From assembly GCA_963772145.1 (NCBI GenBank), contig CAVYVY010000025.1:165315-229314 (forward strand): DNA of 64,000 nucleotides, read 5' to 3'. The DNA comes from an uncultured bacterium (GTDB lineage: Bacteria > Krumholzibacteriota > Krumholzibacteriia > LZORAL124-64-63). Position numbers and translations under genes: made by a program. Under the pieces are notes generated by a model. That model saw only the letters and a program-made list of their open reading frames with translations. It did no database searches and was not told the DNA's origin. This document shows, one piece after another, positions 4,286 through 15,869 of the stretch. How positions within the stretch are numbered: position 1 is the stretch's first letter; the number at the start of each line of letters is the position of its first letter.

Positions 4286-5227
4286 CTAGTAGTGCAGTTC
4301 AAGCGAAAACTTGTGCAGATCGTCGAAGCCGGCCACTTTCGACTCTTCGAAGGCGTAGCCCACCTCCAGCGTCCCCTTGCGCAGACCGAGCCCGGCGGTC
4401 AACCCCTGATTGTCGTAATTGACACGCGATCCGACCCGCAGCGCGAGCTCCGGCACGACCCGGTACTCCGCCCCGATGTGCGCCTTCGCATTGCCATCAT
4501 TGGGCATGAAGATGTCTCCGGCCAGCGTCACCTTCCCGCGCAGGAACGGGTGCGACGGATCGTAGGCGGCACCCAGCCTCACCGCGGTGGGCAGGTCGAA
4601 CGGCTCGGCATTCAGATTGAGCTGCCCGCCCAGATTCGTCACGGACGCGCCGAGCACGAGTCCCTCGATCACCGCTTCGTGGCTGACGAACAGGTCCGCG
4701 GCAAAACCGGTGTCGCTGTAGATGTCTATCTTCTCGTACAGCACCTTCACGGTCGCCCCCACCGCCACCCGGTCGGCAACCTGTCGGGCATAGCTCACGC
4801 CGAAGGCGACGTCGTACGGCTTGAACGTCCCCTGCGGGACGCCGACCGTGTCCTCCTCGTAGCGATCGATCTCGTCGGCATAGAAACCGGAAAACTGCAC
4901 CCCGATCACGCCCCCCGCCGCGCGGTGGGCCAGGCAGACGCTCTCCTTGCTGAACAGGCCGTAGAGCCGCTGATGCTGCAGCAGCAGGTCGGTCCCGCCG
5001 CCCACCAGCGCGAGTCGGGCCGGATTCCACCAGACCGCCGCCGCGCCGGTCGGCGTCGCCACCCCCGCACCGCCCATCGCACTTTCGCGCGCCCCCACCG
5101 GCATCCGGAGGAAGAGGAGGCCGGCGTCGCCCGGCTTTCCGGCCCACGCCGCGGAGACTCCGGTGACCAGGGTGGCGGCCAGCGCCCACAGCGCCACCGT
5201 CCCGATTCGCATGTTCACGCGCGCCAT
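4286..5227 (-). CDS. outer-membrane beta-barrel protein, FadL/PorV/PorQ-like (NPA hatch motif)
   Basis: Signal peptide (TVALWALAATLVTGVSAAWA), N-terminal ...ESAMGGAGVATPTGAAAVWWNPARLA (NPA motif typical of FadL-fold barrels including T9SS PorV), alternating beta-strand pattern and C-terminal aromatic residue. Lies immediately downstream of a T9SS-CTD cargo gene. Confidence 0.5.
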   Translation of the reverse strand: MARVNMRIGTVALWALAATLVTGVSAAWAGKPGDAGLLFLRMPVGARESAMGGAGVATPTGAAAVWWNPARLALVGGGTDLLLQHQRLYGLFSKESVCLAHRAAGGVIGVQFSGFYADEIDRYEEDTVGVPQGTFKPYDVAFGVSYARQVADRVAVGATVKVLYEKIDIYSDTGFAADLFVSHEAVIEGLVLGASVTNLGGQLNLNAEPFDLPTAVRLGAAYDPSHPFLRGKVTLAGDIFMPNDGNAKAHIGAEYRVVPELALRVGSRVNYDNQGLTAGLGLRKGTLEVGYAFEESKVAGFDDLHKFSLELHY

Positions 5228-5330: not shown

Positions 5331-8300
5331 TCAGCGCGCCACCGCCACCGGGGCGACACTGGTCCCGGTCGGCAGCCCCGCCCTTTCAGCGACCAGCCGG
5401 CAGAGGTAAAGCCCGCTGGCGAGTCCCTCCGCCGACAGCACGATCTCACCCGGTCCGCGGCCAGGAATGGCCACGGCCGTCGAAGCCAACACCAGCTGAC
5501 CCATCAGATCATACAGCGTGGCCCGCGCCACACACGCGGCCCCGAATTCGGCCCGCACGCGCAGGGGGCCCCGTTCCAGCGGCGTCGGATAGCAGATGTG
5601 GCTGCCCGCCACGATCAGCTCCGGCAATGTCGGGGCGACGGACTGCGGGCGCGGCAAGGGCCAGCGCCACGGATTTCCCTGCCACGCCGACCAGCCCGTA
5701 CCACCATCATCTTCCGCCACGATCCCCGTGCGATAGATCGCCAGGCGCGAAACAGGGTCCGTGCGCAGACCGCCCGTCTCCATGTTCCGATCCTCGATGC
5801 GCGCGAACGCGCCCACCGCGCAGATTTCCAGGCTGGAATCGCCGTCCAGATCGATGAAAAGACCGGTCCCGGCCACCGCGGACGGTCCCGCGACCGGCCA
5901 GCCGGCCTGCGTGCGGCCATCATCCCCGTTCAGATAGAGGCGACCGTCGCGGCTCTGGAAAAGCGTCAAATCCCTGCCGTCCGACCGCGCTTCCAGCGGC
6001 GCGGGGGCCATCGCGGCCGGTGCGGCGTCCATCTCCGGCCGGGGACGCATCGGCCAGCCGGTGCGCGGCGCGCCCGCGACCGTCACCCTCGCCAGACTCC
6101 CCTGGCCGACATAGGCGCCGCCGGCCGACAGCGGGCTGCGCACCGGTGAGCCGGTCGGCCAGGCATCCCGCCGCACGAACTCCTCGTTGCCGTTCCACCA
6201 CAGGGTCTCGGCCGCGCCCTCCGCGTCCACGATCACGGCGCCCCGCAGCGGCCCCTCGGCCACGACCGCCAGCAGGGGCAACGCCCCGGGGATCAGGGAC
6301 AGCGGCAAGGTCGCCGCGACAACCGGCGTCGCCGGCGGGGACCACGTGACCAGCCGCAGCGTCGACTCTCCGACCGCCGTGTCCACCACCGCGAGCGCCA
6401 GACGCGCCACGGCAACCGGAGTCGGCGGCGCCGGGACGGAGACGGCCCCCAGCAGCAGCGGCGGCAGGGCGTCCCGTCCGCCGGCGTCGATCCAGCGCAG
6501 GCGCGATTGTGCCGGTTCGCCGTACGTCTCGACCACGCAGGCCACGACGCTGCGGCCCGGGTCATAGACCTCGACACCGCCTGTCGCGGGCATCAGAACC
6601 GGCGGCAGCGCGCAATACTCCAGGGACGCCAGCAGCCCGAAGCTGTCCGGATCGTCGTCACCATCGGCAAGCTCACTGCCGTCCTCGCCATTGAAAGCGT
6701 ACAGACCGTGCGGTCCGCAGAGCACGATCTCCTGCCGGCCGTCCCCGTCGAGATCGCCGGCGGCGGCAGGCCCGTTCCAGCGCACCGGCACACCGTCGGC
6801 GTCGGTCCCGATCGCCAGAATCCCGCTGGTGGCGGGAGTCGCGTCGCCGTCGTACTGCTCGGACAGGTCCGGCTCGAAGGCGAAAACCTCGCCCCGCGCC
6901 CCTCCGACGACGATTTCCAGCCGGCCGTCGGGCGGCGCGTCGAGATCCACCGCCAGCAGGTGCGAACCGGCAAGATCGACGCCGTCCAGCCGCCGCTCCG
7001 CGCCCGGCACAGGGCCGGCGTCCGGTTCGTCCCGCCGGCAGCGGAAAGTCAGATGGTCGGCGTAGCGGATGAACGTCCGTGGCGGGACGTTGGAGATCGC
7101 GCTGGAGTCGGCCACCACGTTGGCGATGCGATCGATCACCACACCGGTCCAGGCGCCGCCGGCAGAGCGGCTGTCGGGGTTGGTCGTCGGGCCGAACGTG
7201 GCGTTGTCCTCGCCCCGGAAGCTGTCGAAGTCGCCGCCAAGCATGTACTCCGAAGGCTGGCGCGAGTCGAGATCCTGGATGCCGTCGGCCTCCTCCAGAT
7301 CGACGGACTTGCGGCGCGGATCGGAGTTGAAGAGGTTGCCCTCCGCCTCGATGGCGTCGGTGATCACCCCCTCGTCGACATGCCAGACATACAGCCCGCT
7401 GCCGGCCCCCTTCACGCCCGGCTGCCGCGCCTGATTCTCGCTCATGAAGAAGTCCCACTCGGCGCCGGTCAACAGCTCACGCGTGTCGGTCGCGGGATCG
7501 AAAAAGCCGGTCGGGGTGCCGTCACCGTTGGCTGAATTCGCGTCCAGAAAATCGGGAATATTGTTGCCGTTGAGATCACCGGCGAAGGAGAAGATGCGGT
7601 TCCCGTCGGGATCCTGCAGGCGGTACTCGAGCAGCCAGTACTCCCGTCCGCCGATCTCGACCCGCGCCGCCAGCGAATCCCCGGCCGCGCTCTCGATCGG
7701 ATCCAGACGCCAAACCTCTCCGGCGCCCGGTTCGACGGCATACGGTTCGATCCAGCCCATGAGGAGCTTGTTGAAGGCGGAAGGCTGACAGGGGATGAAG
7801 CCGGCGCCGACGAACAGTCCGTAGCCCATCAGATCGAATTCGCCCACGCCCTGACTGTCGGGATGCCCCGCCGGCGTGAAGTCGCTCAACGAGAGCATGC
7901 CCAGACGCAGGCCCACCTCGAAACAGTAGACCCCGAGGGAGCCGAAGAAGCCGCCGAAACCGGCGAACGGATCCTGGAATTCCGTTTCCGGCAAGCACCA
8001 GCACCTGGTTCACGATGACCGGTTCCCCCCCGCTGTCGACATCGTCGGTGGGCAGGTACGGCTGGGCCAGCATCGTATCGTCCGCGGCGCGGGCAAAGTC
8101 CTCGGGGCTCAGATAGGTGCTGTAGATCTGTTCCGGCGAATCGTTCAGCAGATCGGTCTCTTCGCCCGCGCCGGCGTGCACGATCACCACGGTGTCGTAG
8201 CGCGAGAAGTCCACCCGGTTGTCGAGCGCCGCGACCACGTCCCGCGCCAGCAGCACCGACTGCTCGCCCGCCACGGGGTGATTGCCGTACCAGCCCATCG

Positions 8301-8805
8301 GGCGGGCCAGGTTCGCCACGGCCCCCACGACAGCGCAGCGCACCGTGAGACGCCCGCCGCTGACGGCGTCGAAGTACGCGGCCACGTCGGCAAACTGATG
8401 CGCGAAGAAAAGCGAGTCGTGCGCCGCGTAGTAGAAATCGCTCTGCCGGGGCAGCGGAAACTCGCCCGGGACCGAGCCATATCGGCCGTACAGCAGACTG
8501 TCAGCGAAGTCGCAAAGCAACACAACGACGGACAGCGTGTCCGCGGGACTCTCCCCCGCGAGACGCTGGCGTAGCAGGGTACGCGAACCGTCCGCGAGCA
8601 GCGACGCCGACCGCTCCGCCAGAGCCTCCCGCACCGCCGACGGCAGCGGCCGGGGCGCGCGGGACGACGGCCCGGGCGCGGCCGGCACGGCGACGGCCGC
8701 GGCGAGCAACACCAGCATCACACCGGCCTGGAGCGCACACTGACACCGGCATCGGACAGGATGTGGCGCGGAAACACCGATCCGGGAACTGGACACCTTC
8801 GGCAT
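5331..8805 (-). CDS. large secreted protein with M6/InhA-like N-terminal domain, FG-GAP/VCBS repeats and T9SS C-terminal sorting domain; one apparent frameshift near 7985
   Basis: Two overlapping ORFs (7576-8853 and 5331-7994) in different frames. The upstream part has a signal peptide and M6-type motifs (VVLLCDFAD, VVIVHAGAGEE). The downstream part has FG-GAP-like DLDGDGRQEIV and DLDGDSSLEI repeats and a terminal T9SS CTD (ATLYDLMGQLV...GLASGLYLCRLV). ATG at 8805 has a GAGGAAG RBS. Confidence 0.6.
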
Positions 8806-8863
8806 GCCGATCTTCCTCACGAGTCGCGCGGGGATTCGTCGCGGGCGGGCCACCGACGTGGCG

Positions 8864-9112: not shown

Positions 9113-10843
9113 TCAGCGCCGGCGCTGCTCTCCGTTATCTTCCTGGCCGCCCTTGGTGCGGCCTCCGCCACTCGCCGGGCGCGCGGTGCTCGGACCGCCC
9201 CCGGCACGCGCCGAGGGGGGCGATGCCGGGCGGTCCTCGCGGCGCAGCGCCGGCGCGGGCCGGTCGGTCGACGAGGGACGATCATCGCCACGGACCGCCT
9301 GTCCGCGCGCGGCTTCGGGCGCCCGAGTCTCTCCGCTCCCGTCCCTCACCCGCGAGGGCTCCGTGTCGCGTCCACGGCGGGATTCGGGCGCCGCCCGCTC
9401 GCCCCGCTCTGTGGTCGACCCGCCCCGTCCGCCCGACCAGATACGAGCGACGGGCTTGCGTGGATCGAGCGGTCTGATGGCGCCACGGTCAGTAGCGCCA
9501 CGCGCCGCGGACACCGGCCGCGCGGGGCTGAGCCGCTCGTCCCCGGGCCGCACCGGCGTGCGCACCCGGCCGCCCCGTACCTGATCTTCACGCACGCGCA
9601 GACCGCCTTCGCGAGCGTCACGAACCGGGGCCTCGCGGAAGGTTACCGGCTGGCGCAGGTCGGGGGCTACGTTCGCGAAGTCCCCGCGTCCGCCGCCCCC
9701 GCCCCCCTGCACGCGGGCCCCATCACGGTCGAGCTTCGTACGGGTGCGCAGGACCTCTTCCACGTCGCGCGGCGGACGCGCCTCGCGGACGAACGGTGTG
9801 GAACGCGCGATCTGCTTCTGCCGCCAGCGTTCGTCACGGATATCGCGCTTGTCGAGCGGCGAGTAGCGCCGATCACCCGACTTCCAGCGGCTCCAGGCGT
9901 CATCATGCCAGTAGGGCGAATAGTTCCAGACGTAGCAACTGAACGGCCAGTCGTACACCGCGTAGCCCGGCCAGTCATACCAGGGAGTGTACCAGTAGTT
10001 GATCCACGGCCGCGAACTCCAGGGATCGACATAGTAGTAGGCCGGGTACTGGTAGACCGGGTAATAGCCGAAACGGACGTACCAGCGGTTGGACCAGTCG
10101 TAGTCGTGATGAATCGCGATCGTGCAGCTCGCACCGTAAGGATCGTAGTTCTCGCCGGCGTGGCACTGACCGCACAGGTAGCGGGGATGCTCCACCTGGC
10201 GCTCGACGAAGTAGCTGACGTAGTTCGTCACGACGAAGTCCTCGGCGTTTTCCAGGCGGGTGATCGCGTGATTGACCTCGTTCATCGCCAGGAAAGGATC
10301 GCCAGCCACCGCGTAGCGATAATCTTCGTCCGCTGGCTCGTGATGAAAGTCCACCTCGATATCCCGCAGGTCGAAGGGGTACAGGGAGACCACGGCTTCG
10401 ACATACTCTACTCCCGGCTCGGAACCGGCGCGCAGGCGGGGTGCCCCGGCGGCCGGCAGGCTGTACTGATGACGGCCGAAGACAAAGCCGTCGTCGAGCC
10501 GGCTGCGTGGCCAGAGGATGGTGACCCCGCCATCGGAGTCGATGCGGTAGACGACGGCGTAGGCGTCCTGGTTCGCCTCGAAAGCGATGTTGATCTGTTC
10601 GCCCCGGCGGTACGTATCGCCGTCGCCGCGACCCTGCGTAATATTCACGCGCAGCGGCTGGTTCTCGTAGCCGGTCCAGCTCGGTCCGGCGCCATCGTCG
10701 GGCGGATTCGCCGCGGGGTTCGCCGCGCCGGCAAGGGGGATCAGCAGCAGCGCGACGAGCAGCAGGGAGAGCCGCGCCGACCCGTGACGGGTCCGGGCTA
10801 CTCCGCCCATGCCACGATGAGTGCGATATCCCTGATGTTCCAT
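9113..10843 (-). CDS. secreted hypothetical protein (576 aa): DUF4384-like N-terminal domain, CXXCH motif, extreme Tyr/Trp-rich segment, RGD, long Arg/Asp/Glu-rich disordered tail
   Basis: ATG at 10843 has a GAGGAGG RBS. Signal peptide LSLLLVALLLIPLAGAA. YAVVYRIDSDGGVTILWP resembles DUF4384. CGQCHAGENYDPYGASCTIAIHH follows, then ~70 aa with >45% Y/W (WYVRFGYYPVYQYPAYYYVDPW...). The last ~250 aa are R/D/E/G/P-rich with GGGGGGRGDF. Confidence 0.6.
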   Translation of the reverse strand: MEHQGYRTHRGMGGVARTRHGSARLSLLLVALLLIPLAGAANPAANPPDDGAGPSWTGYENQPLRVNITQGRGDGDTYRRGEQINIAFEANQDAYAVVYRIDSDGGVTILWPRSRLDDGFVFGRHQYSLPAAGAPRLRAGSEPGVEYVEAVVSLYPFDLRDIEVDFHHEPADEDYRYAVAGDPFLAMNEVNHAITRLENAEDFVVTNYVSYFVERQVEHPRYLCGQCHAGENYDPYGASCTIAIHHDYDWSNRWYVRFGYYPVYQYPAYYYVDPWSSRPWINYWYTPWYDWPGYAVYDWPFSCYVWNYSPYWHDDAWSRWKSGDRRYSPLDKRDIRDERWRQKQIARSTPFVREARPPRDVEEVLRTRTKLDRDGARVQGGGGGGRGDFANVAPDLRQPVTFREAPVRDAREGGLRVREDQVRGGRVRTPVRPGDERLSPARPVSAARGATDRGAIRPLDPRKPVARIWSGGRGGSTTERGERAAPESRRGRDTEPSRVRDGSGETRAPEAARGQAVRGDDRPSSTDRPAPALRREDRPASPPSARAGGGPSTARPASGGGRTKGGQEDNGEQRRR

Positions 10844-10889
10844 GTCACGCCTCCTCGCCGGCCCTTCAGCCGACCTCGCCATGCAGTCC

Positions 10890-11771
10890 CTAGAAACTCA
10901 TCACTTCGGCGACGACTCCCGTGCGAGACGGCGCCGGCATTGCCTTCAGCTCCCGATTGTCGGCAGCGATCTGATACGCCCAGTCAACAGTGATCGAGCC
11001 CGTGATGCCGTCAAGATCCATGACCGCGATCTTCGCGTAGTGATAGGTGGAAGTGCCGACGCGCACGACATAGGCATGGCCCCGAATCGCCTCGACCCGT
11101 CGCGCGACCGTCCAGCCCTCGAGGGGAGCGTAGCTGAGCAGATCGAGGTCGATGAAGCCCGAGTCGGTCATCACGTTGCCGTAGTCCTGCAGTTCGACAT
11201 CACTGCGCGCGGCGTAGACGAAAGGGACATCTCCGGACCACTCGACAAAGATGTCGGCCGTGGCATCCGCAGCCGGGACACGCAGGGCGCGGCTGAAGTC
11301 GAAGCCGCTGGCGGCCGGCGTGATGAGGCGGTCGAAGAGATCGACATCGAACCCCTCGGGACGCGGCGTGTCGAGCACGACCTCGAAGCTGAGCTCGCTC
11401 TCATTCCCCGCACCGTCGTACGAAGCGACCGCGTACTCATAGGTCAGGCCGTTCGTGACCGGTTCGTCCACGAAATGGTGCAGGCCGGTGGTCTGATCCC
11501 AATTCTCGTCCCAGGCAAGGTCGGCAAGATGCTCGAATTCGCCGTCGGCGTTGTCATCCCGATAAACGGCGTAGCCCGCCAGATCGCTCTGGTAGATGTC
11601 GTTCCACAACACGGTGATACGGCCGTCGCCGGTGACACTGTACACTCCGGTCGGCACCGCGGGGGGATCACGATCCACGCACTCGATGCAATCCTCTTCG
11701 GAACAGCCGCCGAGCCAGAACGCCACCGCCAGGGGCAGGATCGCCAGAGTCACCGCCTGCGCCATCTTCAT
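10890..11771 (-). CDS. lipoprotein with fibronectin type III-like domain
   Basis: ATG AAG ATG at 11771 has a GGAGG RBS. Lipobox LAVAFWLGGC. FN3-like strand pattern (YAVYRDDNADGEFEHL...GLTYEYAVASYDGAGNES). Confidence 0.6.
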   Translation of the reverse strand: MKMAQAVTLAILPLAVAFWLGGCSEEDCIECVDRDPPAVPTGVYSVTGDGRITVLWNDIYQSDLAGYAVYRDDNADGEFEHLADLAWDENWDQTTGLHHFVDEPVTNGLTYEYAVASYDGAGNESELSFEVVLDTPRPEGFDVDLFDRLITPAASGFDFSRALRVPAADATADIFVEWSGDVPFVYAARSDVELQDYGNVMTDSGFIDLDLLSYAPLEGWTVARRVEAIRGHAYVVRVGTSTYHYAKIAVMDLDGITGSITVDWAYQIAADNRELKAMPAPSRTGVVAEVMSF

Positions 11772-11850
11772 CTCTTCCTCCCTCACTTCGGCCGTCGCCG
11801 CCAGCCCCGCGCCGCGCCAGTGATGTGTCCCGGCCGAACCCGGATGTATC

Positions 11851-11865
11851 GCAGACATCGTGCCA
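11851..11865 (-). promoter_or_regulatory. sigma54-type promoter candidate P2 (TGGCACG-N4-CTGC)
   Basis: Minus strand reads TGGCACG ATGT CTGC G, a perfect -24 heptamer with the -12 GC correctly spaced. Predicted TSS is ~68 nt upstream of the FN3-lipoprotein ATG at 11771. Confidence 0.45.
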
Positions 11866-12159
11866 GGCTCACGCCCCCGCCGCGGATCGGGGATCGCACG
11901 ACGCCGTGCCGTGCGCGGCGGAGGAATGCCTCAGCATAAATTATTTGATTCGAGGATCTTGATTGCAGAGCCGGCCCTCGCCCGAAGGGTGGGAGTGGAC
12001 GACTCCCGCCAGTCGGCGTGCACCCGCGATGGGCGACACCGTCCCGGTTGTGCTCAACAGAGTCCAGCGGATCTCCGGGAGTAGACGCGGAACGGGCCGG
12101 GAAGTGGATGGCGCACGGCGGTGGGGAGCAGGCTGAATGCCGGTCCGGCGAGGCGGAAA

Positions 12160-12266
12160 AACGAGGAAAGAGCCCGCCGGGGTCCCGGCACGACCGACCT
12201 TGAATCTCGCCAATTCAAGGCCGGCCCGGCTCTTCCCTCGCATCGCCACATGCCTGACTGGTCAGG
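12160..12266. other. nested stable inverted repeats inside the AT-rich non-coding region (candidate structured RNA / leader)
   Basis: CGAGGAAAGAGCC (12162-12174) pairs with GGCTCTTCCCTCG (12228-12240), a ~13-bp helix with one mismatch. It encloses an 8-bp hairpin CCTTGAAT...ATTCAAGG (12198-12220). GCCTGAC-TG-GTCAGGC lies at 12251-12266. No conserved RNase P, tmRNA or SRP motifs were recognised. Confidence 0.2.
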
Positions 12267-12511
12267 CTTTGAATGAAACTTCGGGGAGGGATCCGTTCCG
12301 CCGGTTCTCTCTACTCTGCCCGATCGGTCCTCAAGACCCCACCTCTCAAGAACCCACAGGCAGAACCCACGAAGAGAACCTCCTCTTCCAGCCGGTAAGC
12401 AGTGAGGATCGCGGACCCGGATTTCCCTCCCCAAATTCTGCCGCCCCAGCGGCCTGGACCATGAGAAGCGGCTGTTTCCCTGCAACGAGAGCCCCTTCAG
12501 ATGCCATGTAC

Positions 12512-12527
12512 AGCACTCCGCGTGCCA
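12512..12527 (-). promoter_or_regulatory. sigma54-type promoter candidate P1 (TGGCACG-N4-GTGC)
   Basis: Minus strand reads TGGCACG CGGA GTGC T. Predicted TSS ~12501 would transcribe into the ~700-nt AT-rich non-coding region toward the downstream surface-protein genes. Confidence 0.4.
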
Positions 12528-12748
12528 CGGACGGCTTCGTTTGAAGAATCTTAAGTTATTGCAGAAACGCCATTTACATATTATGAGGAGGTATCCATCG
12601 GAGGACGGGAGCCGTGATTGATTCAATCGTTGACAGTCGGGGGCCTGCCCTCGCAAGTCGTTGATATAATGCTGTTTAATGTATTAAAATAATTTACAGG
12701 CGTCGGACCGCACATGGCCCGTGGTTACAAAAGGAGGGCAGGCGCGCG

Positions 12749-15700
12749 TCAGGAAGTCTGAAGACCGTAGAAACGGATCTTCTTGAGCAGATTGGGGTAG
12801 CTGATCTCCAGCATCCGGGCGGTCTCCGACTTGTTCCCTCGCGTCAGGCGGAGGGTTTCGGCGATCTCCCGGCATTCGACCGTCGCCAGAGTCTCGCGCA
12901 GCGGAGCCGGTCGACCAACCTTCCCCGCTGGCCGTCCCGCGCCGATCTCGTGCGGCAGATGCTCCGGCTTGAGAACACGCTCCTCCTGGGCCAGGACGAT
13001 CGCCCTCCGGACCGACTTCTCCAGCTCGCGGATGTTGCCGGGCCAGTCGTGCGCCACCAGCGCATCCATGAACGAGGAGGTGTATCCGGGGGGCGCAATC
13101 CCCAGTTCCCCGGCAAAGCGTTCGATGAAATGGTGCACGAGCAGCTGGATGTCATCGCGACGGGTGCGCAGCGGTGGTACAACGAGCGGAAAATCGAGCA
13201 ACCGGTAGAAAAGATCCTGGAGGAAAAGCCCGCGTTCCGTCAGGTCGTGGAGATCAGACTTGCTGGCGCAGATGATGCGCACATCGACCTGACGCTCCTG
13301 GTTGGAGCCGACCGGCCGGATGATCCTGGTGTCCAGGAACTGAAGCAGTTTGCCCTGCATGCTAAGCGGCATCTTCCCGATTTCGTCCAGGAAGACGGTT
13401 CCCCCCTCGGCCTCCGCCAGCAGCCCGCGCTTGTCGCCGATCGCCCCGGTGAAGCTGCCCTTGACGTGTCCGAACAACTCGCTTTCCAGCAGTGTTTCGG
13501 GAATCGCCGCGCAGTTGATCGCCAGGAAGCGCCCGCCGTGCCGCCGGCTGAGCGCGTGGACGGCCTGAGCCAGCAGCCCCTTGCCGGTGCCGGTCTCGCC
13601 GGTCAGCAGGACAGTGAGATCGCTGGGAGCCACCTTGCGAATGAGGGCGAGCAGTTCAAGCATCTGCTCGTTTTCGGTGATGACCTGATCGAAACTGGCG
13701 GTCTCGCCTGATGGCGCCACCGGCACAACAGGCTCGCCAGGCAGACGTCCCCGCCCCTTCTCGAACAGGAACAGGGCGAGAAAGCCCATGTAGGTGGCCA
13801 GGAAGTCGAGCGCGGGGCGCCCAAAGGCCACCTCACCACCCACGAGGCTGCTGCGTCCGAGGTAGAGGACGCCGAATCGTCTGCCCTCGAGCGTGATCGG
13901 CATGAAGAGACACCCGGCCGCCCTGTCCCGGAGCGCCGGCACGGCTGCCAACAGCGGTTCGCCCCCGGCCAGCCGGGAGAAGAGGACGGGGTTCGCCGAA
14001 TCCACGCTGGCGGGGACACTCGCGCGGTACCAGCGCCCGAGTTGATCGGAGAGATTGTCGGAAAGCCCCTCGCGAGCCACCACACGCAGCGGATGTGTTC
14101 CGGCCTCTGCCCAGTCGAGAGCGATGAAACCATGATCGGCGCGTACCCGGTCCATCCCCGCCCGCAGGACCGCCGTGAGATTGCGCGGGATGGAGGCATC
14201 ATGCCAACTGAAGATGCCTGGGATTCCGGAAATCGCCTGGAGATGGTTCTCGGTGCTCCCAATGTCGCCGAGCAGAGCGCGTTCGATGCGTCCGCGCAGA
14301 TCGCTGATCGCGAGACTGAGCCCGGCATCGCCCAGCCCGCCCGCGTTGCGCTCGAGTTCATAGGCCGTCAGCAGCGCGTCGTCGAACTGGCCGAGCCGCA
14401 TCTGCACTTCCGCCAGCCCCTGCTGCAGCCGGCAGAGCAGACGGTCATCGAGCACCGCGCTCCCGCTCTCCTGGGCCTCGCTCAGATAGCGGCGCAACAG
14501 CAGGAATTCCGGCTGGGCGGCCGTGGCAAGCCGGGCATCAAGGAAAGCGAGGATCGCATCGATCCAGAGACGGGGCAGGTTTTGCTGTCGGAACAACTGG
14601 ATCGCGCGCCTGAACTCCGCATCCGCTCCGGCAAAATCTCCCCGGGTCGCGCGGGCGCGACCGAGTGTCAGATGGCAAAATCCCAGTTCGTACTGCTCGC
14701 CGCACTTCTCGCAGACCACCACCGCCGCGAGGCCGGTTTCGATCGCCTGTTCGAGATCGCCCCGCATCCGCTGCGCCTCGGCGATCCGTCGGAGCAGTTC
14801 GCCCTCCAGATCACAGACTTTGCCGATCGTGCGACTCTTGTCGAGACCCAGACTGTAATTGAAGAGCGCCTTGTCTGTCTCGCCGCGCAGCAGCAGGATG
14901 TCCCCCAGGTACTCGTCCGCGATTGTCTCCTCGCGCAGGTACTGCTCCTGTTCAGCCAGGATCTTGCCCTCGAGCACGAACTCCTCGGCTTTGACGAGAC
15001 GTCCCGCACGCATTTCCAGCAGTCCGTAGGCCAGACAGACCTTGGTCTGACGATTCCGGTCACCGAGACTCCGCGCCAGACGCAGGCTGCGGTCGAGATC
15101 CTCGCGCGCTTCGCCCAGACGCCCGGTCTTGCCGAGAATGATGCCGCGATTCAGGTGCAGGCGGGCCAGCAGGTGCGTGGCGCCGTGACGCTGCGCGATG
15201 GCTACGGCCTTCTCGAGGAGATCGAGCGCCCGGTTCCAGCGGCAGGCGTTCTTGTGGAGCAGCCCGAGGTTGTTGTGCAGCGTGGCCGCACCCAGTTCGT
15301 CTCCGATCCGCCGATAACTGGACAGCGCGTCGAGATAAAACTCCTCCGCCTTGTCCAGACGTCCCGAGGCGTTGGTGGCAGGCCCCCATCGTCACCTGCA
15401 GGTTCGCCACCTCCCGATGCTCGTCCGTCACGGCCAGGATGGCGAAGGCGTGCTTGGCGGTCTGCAGGGCGTCGGTGAGCAGGCCCCGCTGGGAAAGGAG
15501 GATGGCCCGTCGGCCCATAAGCGGGGCAAGGAGATGGGCGCGCTCCTCGGCTGTCAGATCGTCGGCAGCGTCGAAGAGCGTGGAAGCGAGTCCAAGGAAC
15601 GATTCCGCAAGATCGAGATCACCGATATTCAGCGCGGCATCGACACTCTTGCGCAGCACCCCGGCCCGGCGGGCCGGGAGAAGCAGCTGCAACGTGGCAC

Positions 15701-15869
15701 CTTCGAGTAGTCGTCGATAGTACTCCAGCGAGGAACTGTAGGCGCAGGCCTGCGCGTGGAGATCCCCGATTTCCTCCAACCGATCGCACTCCTCCGCGTC
15801 GAGCGCGTGGGAACGCCGTGGATATTCCGCCTCCGGCCTGCTGTACCCGTTCGGCTGCTCGCTCATCAA
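12749..15869 (-). CDS. sigma54-dependent transcriptional activator (bacterial enhancer-binding protein) with N-terminal TPR repeats and GAF-like domain; apparent frameshift(s) near 15000-15400
   Basis: AAA+ sigma54-interaction domain (GETGTGKGLLAQAVH, GSFTGA, ESELFGH, arginine-finger region) and C-terminal Fis-type HTH in ORF 12749-15013. The N-terminal TPR region continues in ORF 15060-15869 in another frame. Confidence 0.75.

Follow-up and report, generated by a model that had tools for sequence, protein, structure and literature searches.

We examined a gene located at positions 9113–10843 on the minus strand of a 64,000-nucleotide stretch of DNA (64 kb, hereafter the window) from an uncultured bacterium of the phylum Krumholzibacteriota (contig CAVYVY010000025.1, assembly GCA_963772145.1). 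It encodes a protein of 576 amino acids, followed by the stop codon, in which a DUF4384 domain is combined with a CxxCH module that is a putative c-type heme site, a segment saturated with tyrosine and tryptophan, and a long cationic tail. The gene was supported by the list of open reading frames (ORFs) of the window, by an AGGAGG box in front of its ATG and by full-length homologues. The longest ORF at this site spans 9113–10882, and the start at 10843 (MEHQGY...) was preferred over that at 10882 because the AGGAGG box precedes it by 6 nt; in the alignment, homologue P0002 also starts at the equivalent Met. The same start had been chosen in a previous reading of this DNA that was made from its letters alone (hereafter, the sequence-only reading).

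All features given below for this gene and its neighbors are likewise on the minus strand. A signal peptide (residues 1–40, 10724–10843) was recognized by reading the sequence, and includes a basic N-region, a hydrophobic core (LSLLLVALLLIPLAG) and an A-G-A cleavage-type site. The N-termini of aligned homologues share this layout, usually ending in AxA-Q, and the protein reads as exported by the general secretory (Sec) pathway. The folded N-terminal domain (residues 61–222, 10178–10663), delineated by Pfam and AlphaFold, consists of an immunoglobulin (Ig)-like β-sandwich, a conserved GDPFLAMNEVN helix and one extra strand. Within it, Pfam DUF4384 (PF14326) matched positions 10385–10615 (E = 2.7e-12, 47 bits against a cutoff of 27, 78 of 81 model positions), which bore out the DUF4384 domain that the sequence-only reading had proposed and had suggested checking with hidden Markov models. 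The signature module of the protein (R221-Y-L-C224-G-Q-C227-H228...P-Y236...C240, 10124–10183) was delimited by conservation, by the predicted local distance difference test (pLDDT) scores of the structure model and by a weak match to NapB. The next part is a Tyr/Trp/Pro-rich segment (residues 250–312, 9908–10096), recognized by its composition and by its conservation in Krumholzibacteriota. Its 63 residues include 16 Tyr, 10 Trp and 2 Phe (44%) as well as 8 Pro, with eight aromatic-Pro-aromatic units, and the alignment showed that it is kept position by position in this phylum (YYVDPW, WVNYWY-PWY-WP and SPYW). A charged linker (residues 313–379, 9707–9907), defined by alignment A1 and composition, contains a conserved RRYxPLDK island and leads to a disordered polycationic tail rich in Arg, Gly, Pro, Asp and Glu (residues 380–576, 9116–9706), which was recognized by pLDDT, charge and conserved islands. 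Arg makes up 20% and Gly 17% of these 197 C-terminal residues, whose net charge is +15; the islands are GLRV (9593–9607), IRPxxPR...R[IV]WSGGR (9425–9478) and the basic C-terminus. Gene and composition were thus as the sequence-only reading had described them.

Several further features that had been highlighted in that reading were rejected because none is conserved. Three RGD triplets occur (residues 72, 386 and 518), none of which is kept in the alignment, so that the supposed adhesion motif is best regarded as a chance triplet in a protein rich in Arg, Gly and Asp. Similarly, the GGGGGG run in front of RGD is not conserved among homologues, and the histidines of CTIAIHH, which had been offered as extra heme ligands, vary across the aligned homologues.

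When AlphaFold was used with 51 close homologues, only residues 61–222 were modeled with confidence (pLDDT 85–98), as the β-sandwich, one helix and the extra strand; pLDDT was 33–38 in the aromatic segment and below 40 in the disordered tail. With 105 diverse members, the CxxCH module reached pLDDT 81–88, with a short helix over RYLCGQ, and the aromatic segment stayed unfolded even with this alignment, at a pLDDT of about 50 (range up to 55). Foldseek searches against the PDB returned only weak, generic β-sandwiches, such as carbohydrate-binding modules (CBMs), GbpA, complement MG domains and antibodies, and a PDB sequence search with the full profile found no solved-structure relatives.

A genome scan with a narrower alignment (A3), which covers the Krumholzibacteriota clade, detected 86 related loci, and 80 of them were kept. 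Those with a named taxon were mostly Krumholzibacteriota metagenome-assembled genomes (MAGs), and some were filed as "uncultured Fibrobacteraceae". More than 80 species-level genomes were found to carry the same protein in this frame. One relative, locus L007, matches the window with 93% identity over 12.8 kb, and codon changes between the two numbered 19 synonymous and 5 non-synonymous in the folded part, 2 and 0 in the aromatic segment, and 27 and 25 in the tail. All tail indels were multiples of three and left the conserved islands unaffected. Such substitutions are as expected of a coding gene whose core is constrained and whose disordered tail evolves fast. The sequence-only reading had warned that the aromatic and basic regions might be frameshift artifacts; this was rejected on the basis of the frame kept in these genomes, the lack of non-synonymous changes in the aromatic segment relative to L007 and the in-frame tail indels. 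The single-base indel errors of the assembly fall in neighboring genes, outside 9113–10843. A real frameshift is illustrated by homologue P0049 (locus L084), which reads TATATIRSTATRPTSTSIPGPGG... where the aromatic segment is expected, a frameshifted gene call in that MAG; this stretch resembles an alternative-frame ORF at positions 9667–10134 of the window.

The CxxCH module and its family

Close relatives of the protein, identified by a word-indexed search, form 54 clusters of about 550–575 amino acids and are labeled only as "DUF4384 domain-containing" or "hypothetical". A core profile, which extends from the DUF4384 domain through the aromatic segment and excludes the disordered tail, was then searched against 1.84 billion representatives and gave 3794 matches at E ≤ 1e-3, 1129 at E ≤ 1e-10 and 147 at E ≤ 1e-30; the profile of the post-DUF4384 CxxCH module alone gave 362 clusters. 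Named sources of family members were Ignavibacteria, Bacteroidota, Gemmatimonadota, Eisenbacteria and Krumholzibacteriota, and, judging from these searches, the family is large, unnamed and distributed in the FCB (Fibrobacterota-Chlorobiota-Bacteroidota) group of phyla. Its signature can be written as [YH]PR[YF]xCxxCH-(about 6–15 residues)-PYxxxC. Few residues are invariant in the 105 diverse members, including GDP of the helix cap followed by R, C, C, H, Y and C of PR[YF]xCxxCH...PYxxxC; the Arg is located three residues before the first Cys, and the Tyr and last Cys (Y236 and C240) are located 8 and 12 residues after the His.

We also inspected 159 long representatives (at least 400 amino acids). 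R[YFT]xCxxCH was present in 148 of them, each with exactly one CxxCH; P[YF]xxxC followed 11–20 residues after the motif in 147 of these 148 proteins, and a net-positive tail (mean +26 over about 220 residues) was found in all 148. Because they are near-universal in the long representatives, the CxxCH module and the cationic tail may be regarded as the signature of the family. In the window protein the motif is CGQCH (residues 224–228, 10160–10174), the sole CxxCH in all stop-to-stop frames of at least 100 amino acids in the six frames of the window. The single CXXCH motif noted in the sequence-only reading did not arise by chance, as it is invariant in the 105-sequence alignment and as frequent among the long representatives as described above. 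An aromatic region is also present family-wide; it is moderate in most clades and peaks in the QCH-motif clade, which includes the window protein, at about 27 aromatic residues per 60. Thus, the claim that nothing like the aromatic segment could be recognized held only in part: its composition is unusual, but it is the most extreme form of a region that is conserved, and moderately aromatic, in a very large family. One Gemmatimonadota subfamily (P0292, P0298, P0307 and P0217; about 350 amino acids) ends in a conserved GEPELRRR[KR]P.

The family shares with Pfam DUF4384 proteins an N-terminal β-sandwich that scores above the model threshold. In the literature that we found, DUF4384 is mentioned mainly as an accessory domain of orthocaspases and Ser/Thr kinases; in contrast, the CxxCH family adds to it the CxxCH module, the aromatic region and the cationic tail, all of which lie outside all Pfam and NCBIfam models. 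A literature search for DUF4384 returned nothing on an architecture that combines this domain with CxxCH, an aromatic region and a cationic tail. What was known is therefore DUF4384 and its label in database records, and what is new is the putative c-type heme module on a DUF4384 scaffold.

Gene neighborhood in Krumholzibacteriota and other clades

The gene immediately upstream (10890–11771, ending 46 nt before the 576-residue gene) encodes a predicted lipoprotein of 293 amino acids with lipobox LGGC and an FN3-like region, as read from its sequence. It had no Pfam match and only weak FN3-like NCBIfam matches. This partner belongs to an unnamed conserved family of its own, with motifs C..DC, LAGY.VY, GNESELS, DTPRPEG, DFS, GH.YV and DWAYQ shared by the window, L005 (7132–7944) and L006 (7087–7917). 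Further upstream lies a gene for a TPR-GAF sigma-54 activator of the bacterial enhancer-binding protein type (12749–15869; Pfam Sigma54_activat, E = 2.5e-63). It is split in the window (12749–15013 and 15060–15869) and forms a single ORF of 1065 amino acids in L007 (736–3933), and the split is probably another assembly indel. Downstream of the 576-residue gene are a gene for an M6-like "inactivated metalloprotease" with FG-GAP repeats (5331–8853; partial matches to NCBIfam NF052323, and Pfam FG-GAP), which is a cargo protein of the type used by the type IX secretion system (T9SS), and a gene for a PorV/PorQ-family outer-membrane barrel (4286–5227; NCBIfam NF033709, 145 bits against a cutoff of 90). 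The M6-like gene is intact in L001 and L003, with 1105–1142 amino acids. In the window it appears as two overlapping ORFs (7576–8853 and 5331–7994), with an extra T near position 8000 in GGTGCTTGCCGG (compared region 7900–8120), and in L007 (8560–8790) it is broken elsewhere, in a poly-G run 35 nt upstream of the window break. Two different single-base indels point to assembly errors of the homopolymer or long-read type, and the true M6-like gene of the window probably encodes about 1170 amino acids.

A search for sigma-54-type boxes (TGGCA[CT]-N5-xTGC, −24/−12) identified two promoter-like elements: a proximal one, TGGCACGATGTCTGCG, at 11850–11865, approximately 80 nt before the ATG of the lipoprotein gene, and a distal one, TGGCACGCGGAGTGCT, at 12512–12527, which is identical in L007. 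In related loci, such boxes within 6 kb upstream fall almost only at these two relative positions. Both are located in the gap of approximately 860–980 bp between the activator and lipoprotein genes (11772–12748 in the window, with an equivalent region in L007–L086; the gap is also seen in L001 and L003), and the distal box implies a leader of 400–700 nt. A quick ORF listing of one locus, L003, revealed no conserved ORF in this gap, and an Rfam scan of the whole window, aimed at the long leader, gave no match.

This arrangement is stable throughout Krumholzibacteriota. By tblastn, the lipoprotein, M6-like, PorV-family and TPR-activator genes were found on the same strand in all 52 loci with full flanks. 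In two distant Krumholzibacteriota contigs the order is a response-regulator sigma-54 activator, a 100-residue gene, the TPR sigma-54 activator, a gap of about 860 bp, a gene of 305–331 residues, the CxxCH-family gene, the M6-like gene (1105–1142 residues) and a gene of about 313 residues. The neighbors listed by the sequence-only reading, with sigma-54-type boxes upstream and M6-like T9SS-type and PorV/PorQ-family genes downstream, were accordingly confirmed.

Outside Krumholzibacteriota, a clear homologue of the lipoprotein is located directly upstream of the family gene in two Ignavibacteria/Bacteroidota loci (L005 and L006), and a 278-residue gene is equally placed in L088; the three genes encode 270–278 residues. 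In each of these loci a DUF4783 gene comes next after the pair, ahead of a gene for a protein of 1283–1341 amino acids, for which HAMP, HisKA and HATPase domains were found in L005 and L006 and no Pfam match was recorded in L088. In one clade the family gene lies beside an extracytoplasmic function (ECF) sigma/anti-sigma pair. In L089 the gene (P0180) is divergent beside a complete Tol-Pal-like cluster (MotA/ExbB, ExbD, a PD40 protein, an OmpA-family protein and YfiO/TPR), which is another hint of the cell envelope, and in the Gemmatimonadota subfamily (L090 and L091) it is divergent beside DUF58/BatA-type genes, without the lipoprotein partner. With Tol-Pal, ECF sigma factor and DUF58/BatA contexts differing in this way, no functional partner was universal across the clades. 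Since the pairing recurs in distant phyla while other neighbors change, the stable unit is the lipoprotein together with the CxxCH-family protein; the link to a T9SS cargo and PorV is a Krumholzibacteriota feature.

Putative cofactor of the CxxCH module

The conservation of CxxCH makes binding of heme c a reasonable hypothesis. Residues found before the second Cys across the family (D, Q, S, G and N) would fit a heme site. The only PDB match of the module profile at E ≤ 10 was the heme-2 site of NapB (PDB 1JNI), the diheme c-type cytochrome of periplasmic nitrate reductase; it covers approximately 17 residues and, because E is 0.2, is suggestive only. In a Pfam scan of the isolated modules of 33 members, no family was common to more than three of them at E ≤ 10, and NapB was matched by one (E = 0.039, below threshold). 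The likeness lies in RRYFCLQCH...DP of NapB against PRYLCxQCH...DP of the family, both proteins being exported, whereas NapB has two CxxCH motifs and the CxxCH family has one, with no conserved second His and an unrelated architecture. Both NapB hemes are bis-His ligated. The divergent member P0054 has lost both Cys of the motif, its His and the third Cys at once, which suggests that these residues act as one unit. The family thus shows a conserved CxxCH and, as read from the sequence, an export signal, as expected of c-type cytochromes, and lacks the similarity to a known cytochrome c family that would also be expected. Krumholzibacteriota MAGs have been reported to encode many c-type proteins, including OmcS-like, Cyc2, NrfAH and cbb3, and unusually many multiheme proteins (PMC7914226; PMC11495043). 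Therefore, heme-attachment machinery should be present in the phylum, judging from these published MAGs. Taken together, we consider the chance that the module binds a covalent c-type heme to be roughly even, and we place it ahead of each single alternative.

A number of observations weigh against heme or against the wider interpretation built on it. The check for cytochrome c signatures that the sequence-only reading had recommended came back empty, with no Pfam or NCBIfam cytochrome family matching the CxxCH region, and Foldseek found no cytochrome fold in the PDB. The NapB match is not significant at E = 0.2, and an equally weak match was obtained to zf-ChsH2, a rubredoxin-like zinc ribbon (3 of 33 members, E = 0.025). 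Among the 105 members there is no second invariant His or Met that could be a canonical distal ligand, and the conserved Cys, being odd in number, might instead build a metal site. It is unusual for a tail this positively charged (net +15 to +40) to be exported by Sec. With regard to the locus, the sigma-54 boxes are consensus matches only, their promoter role being predicted, and the different gene contexts found outside Krumholzibacteriota, Ignavibacteria and Bacteroidota indicate that the T9SS link may be lineage-specific.

The alternative that survives best, which we nonetheless regard as unlikely, is that no heme is bound and that the three Cys and the His form a small structural Zn/Fe site or a redox-active disulfide at the junction of the Ig-like domain and the aromatic region, with the protein being purely structural or tethering. 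The zf-ChsH2 matches, together with one zinc knuckle match, would agree with such a site, and so would the presence of three conserved Cys rather than two without a conserved distal His or Met, the joint loss of the four residues in P0054, and the lack of a cytochrome fold or family match. However, a zinc ribbon needs two CxxC (or CxxH) knuckles, which supply four ligands, and here only one is found along with a single Cys. A His directly after the second Cys is the heme c signature, and a His in this place is poorly positioned to share a metal ion with that Cys. In addition, the residues before the second Cys and the RY[FL]CxQCH context resemble the NapB heme site, and the protein is exported, so that heme-attachment machinery could reach the motif. 

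If heme is bound, the question of its distal ligand arises. SoxAX, TsdA and DsrJ are exported, His/Cys-ligated c-type heme proteins that have CxxCH and a separate conserved Cys as possible axial ligand. General searches turned up no sequence or fold similarity between them and the CxxCH family, in which the Cys is located 11–20 residues after the His and has a conjectural role. A magnetochrome-like arrangement, in which a His just before CxxCH would be the distal ligand, was rejected as a feature of the family because this position is Tyr in most clades.

Possible role in the cell envelope

The explanation that we favor, with confidence somewhat short of even, is that of a Sec-exported envelope protein that carries heme c on CxxCH, has a cationic tethering tail and is a periplasmic member of a cell-surface module. 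In this protein, CxxCH would be the covalent attachment site of a c-type heme and its His the proximal ligand; the distal ligand could be the invariant downstream Cys240 (or Tyr236), and the invariant Arg could pair with a heme propionate. The aromatic/proline segment may pack around or beside the cofactor, and a cofactor or partner may be needed for its folding; such packing would explain why this segment is unfolded when modeled without a cofactor. Through its cationic tail, with the short conserved islands, the protein would be anchored to partner proteins or to anionic material of the envelope. Together with the FN3-like lipoprotein, it appears to be made in Krumholzibacteriota from the sigma-54-type promoters, which are probably driven by the adjacent activator. 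Because its gene belongs to a phylum-wide cluster with the M6-like T9SS cargo and the PorV/PorQ barrel, we place the protein as a periplasmic, possibly redox-active, member of a cell-surface module. Membership in this cluster is what it has in common with the T9SS cargo, PorV and PorQ partners; an identity as T9SS cargo was itself rejected, as Pfam and NCBIfam revealed no C-terminal sorting domain and the last ~200 residues are disordered (pLDDT <40).

A more elaborate form of this explanation, which we consider highly speculative and improbable as a whole, would make the family a hitherto undescribed class of exported monoheme c-type cytochromes with non-canonical (His/Cys or His/Tyr) ligation, in which a Tyr/Trp/Pro ladder and a polycationic RGG-like tail adjoin the heme. 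Cation-π contacts of the aromatic and Arg-rich parts would drive self-association, and the heme could support oxidative Tyr cross-linking or electron hopping, giving a redox-active envelope matrix or conduit linked to the T9SS-anchored surface protein.

It is less likely than a metal or disulfide site that the protein binds glycans or other polymers at the surface or in a matrix, which is close to the adhesive or matrix role suggested in the sequence-only reading. The Ig-like domain would then be CBM-like, the Tyr/Trp/Pro stacks would bind sugars or polyphenols, the Arg-rich tail would bind anionic polymers, and CxxCH would be secondary. The best Foldseek matches were indeed a porphyran-binding CBM (8wae), the chitin-binding colonization factor GbpA (2xwx and 8gul) and a chitin-binding domain (3uam), with probabilities of 0.89–1.0, although these matches are weak (best E = 7.5e-4, others 1e-3 or weaker; query TM-score 0.11–0.23) and involve generic β-sandwiches. 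The 44% aromatic segment with the Arg/Gly-rich tail and the clustering with T9SS cargo and PorV-family genes would also suit this role, and Krumholzibacteriota have been described as polysaccharide degraders (PMC7914226). However, without a T9SS C-terminal domain or other outer-membrane export signal, surface exposure is unsupported, and the most conserved feature family-wide is the CxxCH module and not the aromatic segment.

A comparably small chance is given to a periplasmic sensing partner, in which the cofactor-bearing protein and the lipoprotein would report envelope redox state or a ligand to nearby regulators: a histidine-kinase-domain protein follows the DUF4783 gene in L005 and L006, the pair follows two sigma-54 activators in Krumholzibacteriota (the TPR activator in 52 of 52 loci) and one clade adjoins the ECF sigma/anti-sigma pair, but activator adjacency is equally explained by simple operon regulation, the kinase link rests on gene proximity rather than a physical link, and Gemmatimonadota and other clades have no regulators nearby.

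If the motif does bind heme, a widespread cytochrome family would be without a name in domain-based surveys, which would miss it because no cytochrome model covers the CxxCH module, and the redox and extracellular electron-transfer capacity estimated for bacteria of sediment, soil and wastewater would change. Whatever the cofactor, three traits of this system are unusual: aromatic residues make up 44% of a conserved segment, the disordered tail of the exported protein is universally cationic, and the gene cluster, invariant across an uncultured phylum, includes a T9SS cargo, a dedicated PorV/PorQ paralogue and sigma-54-type control. Together, these traits mark a cell-envelope module.

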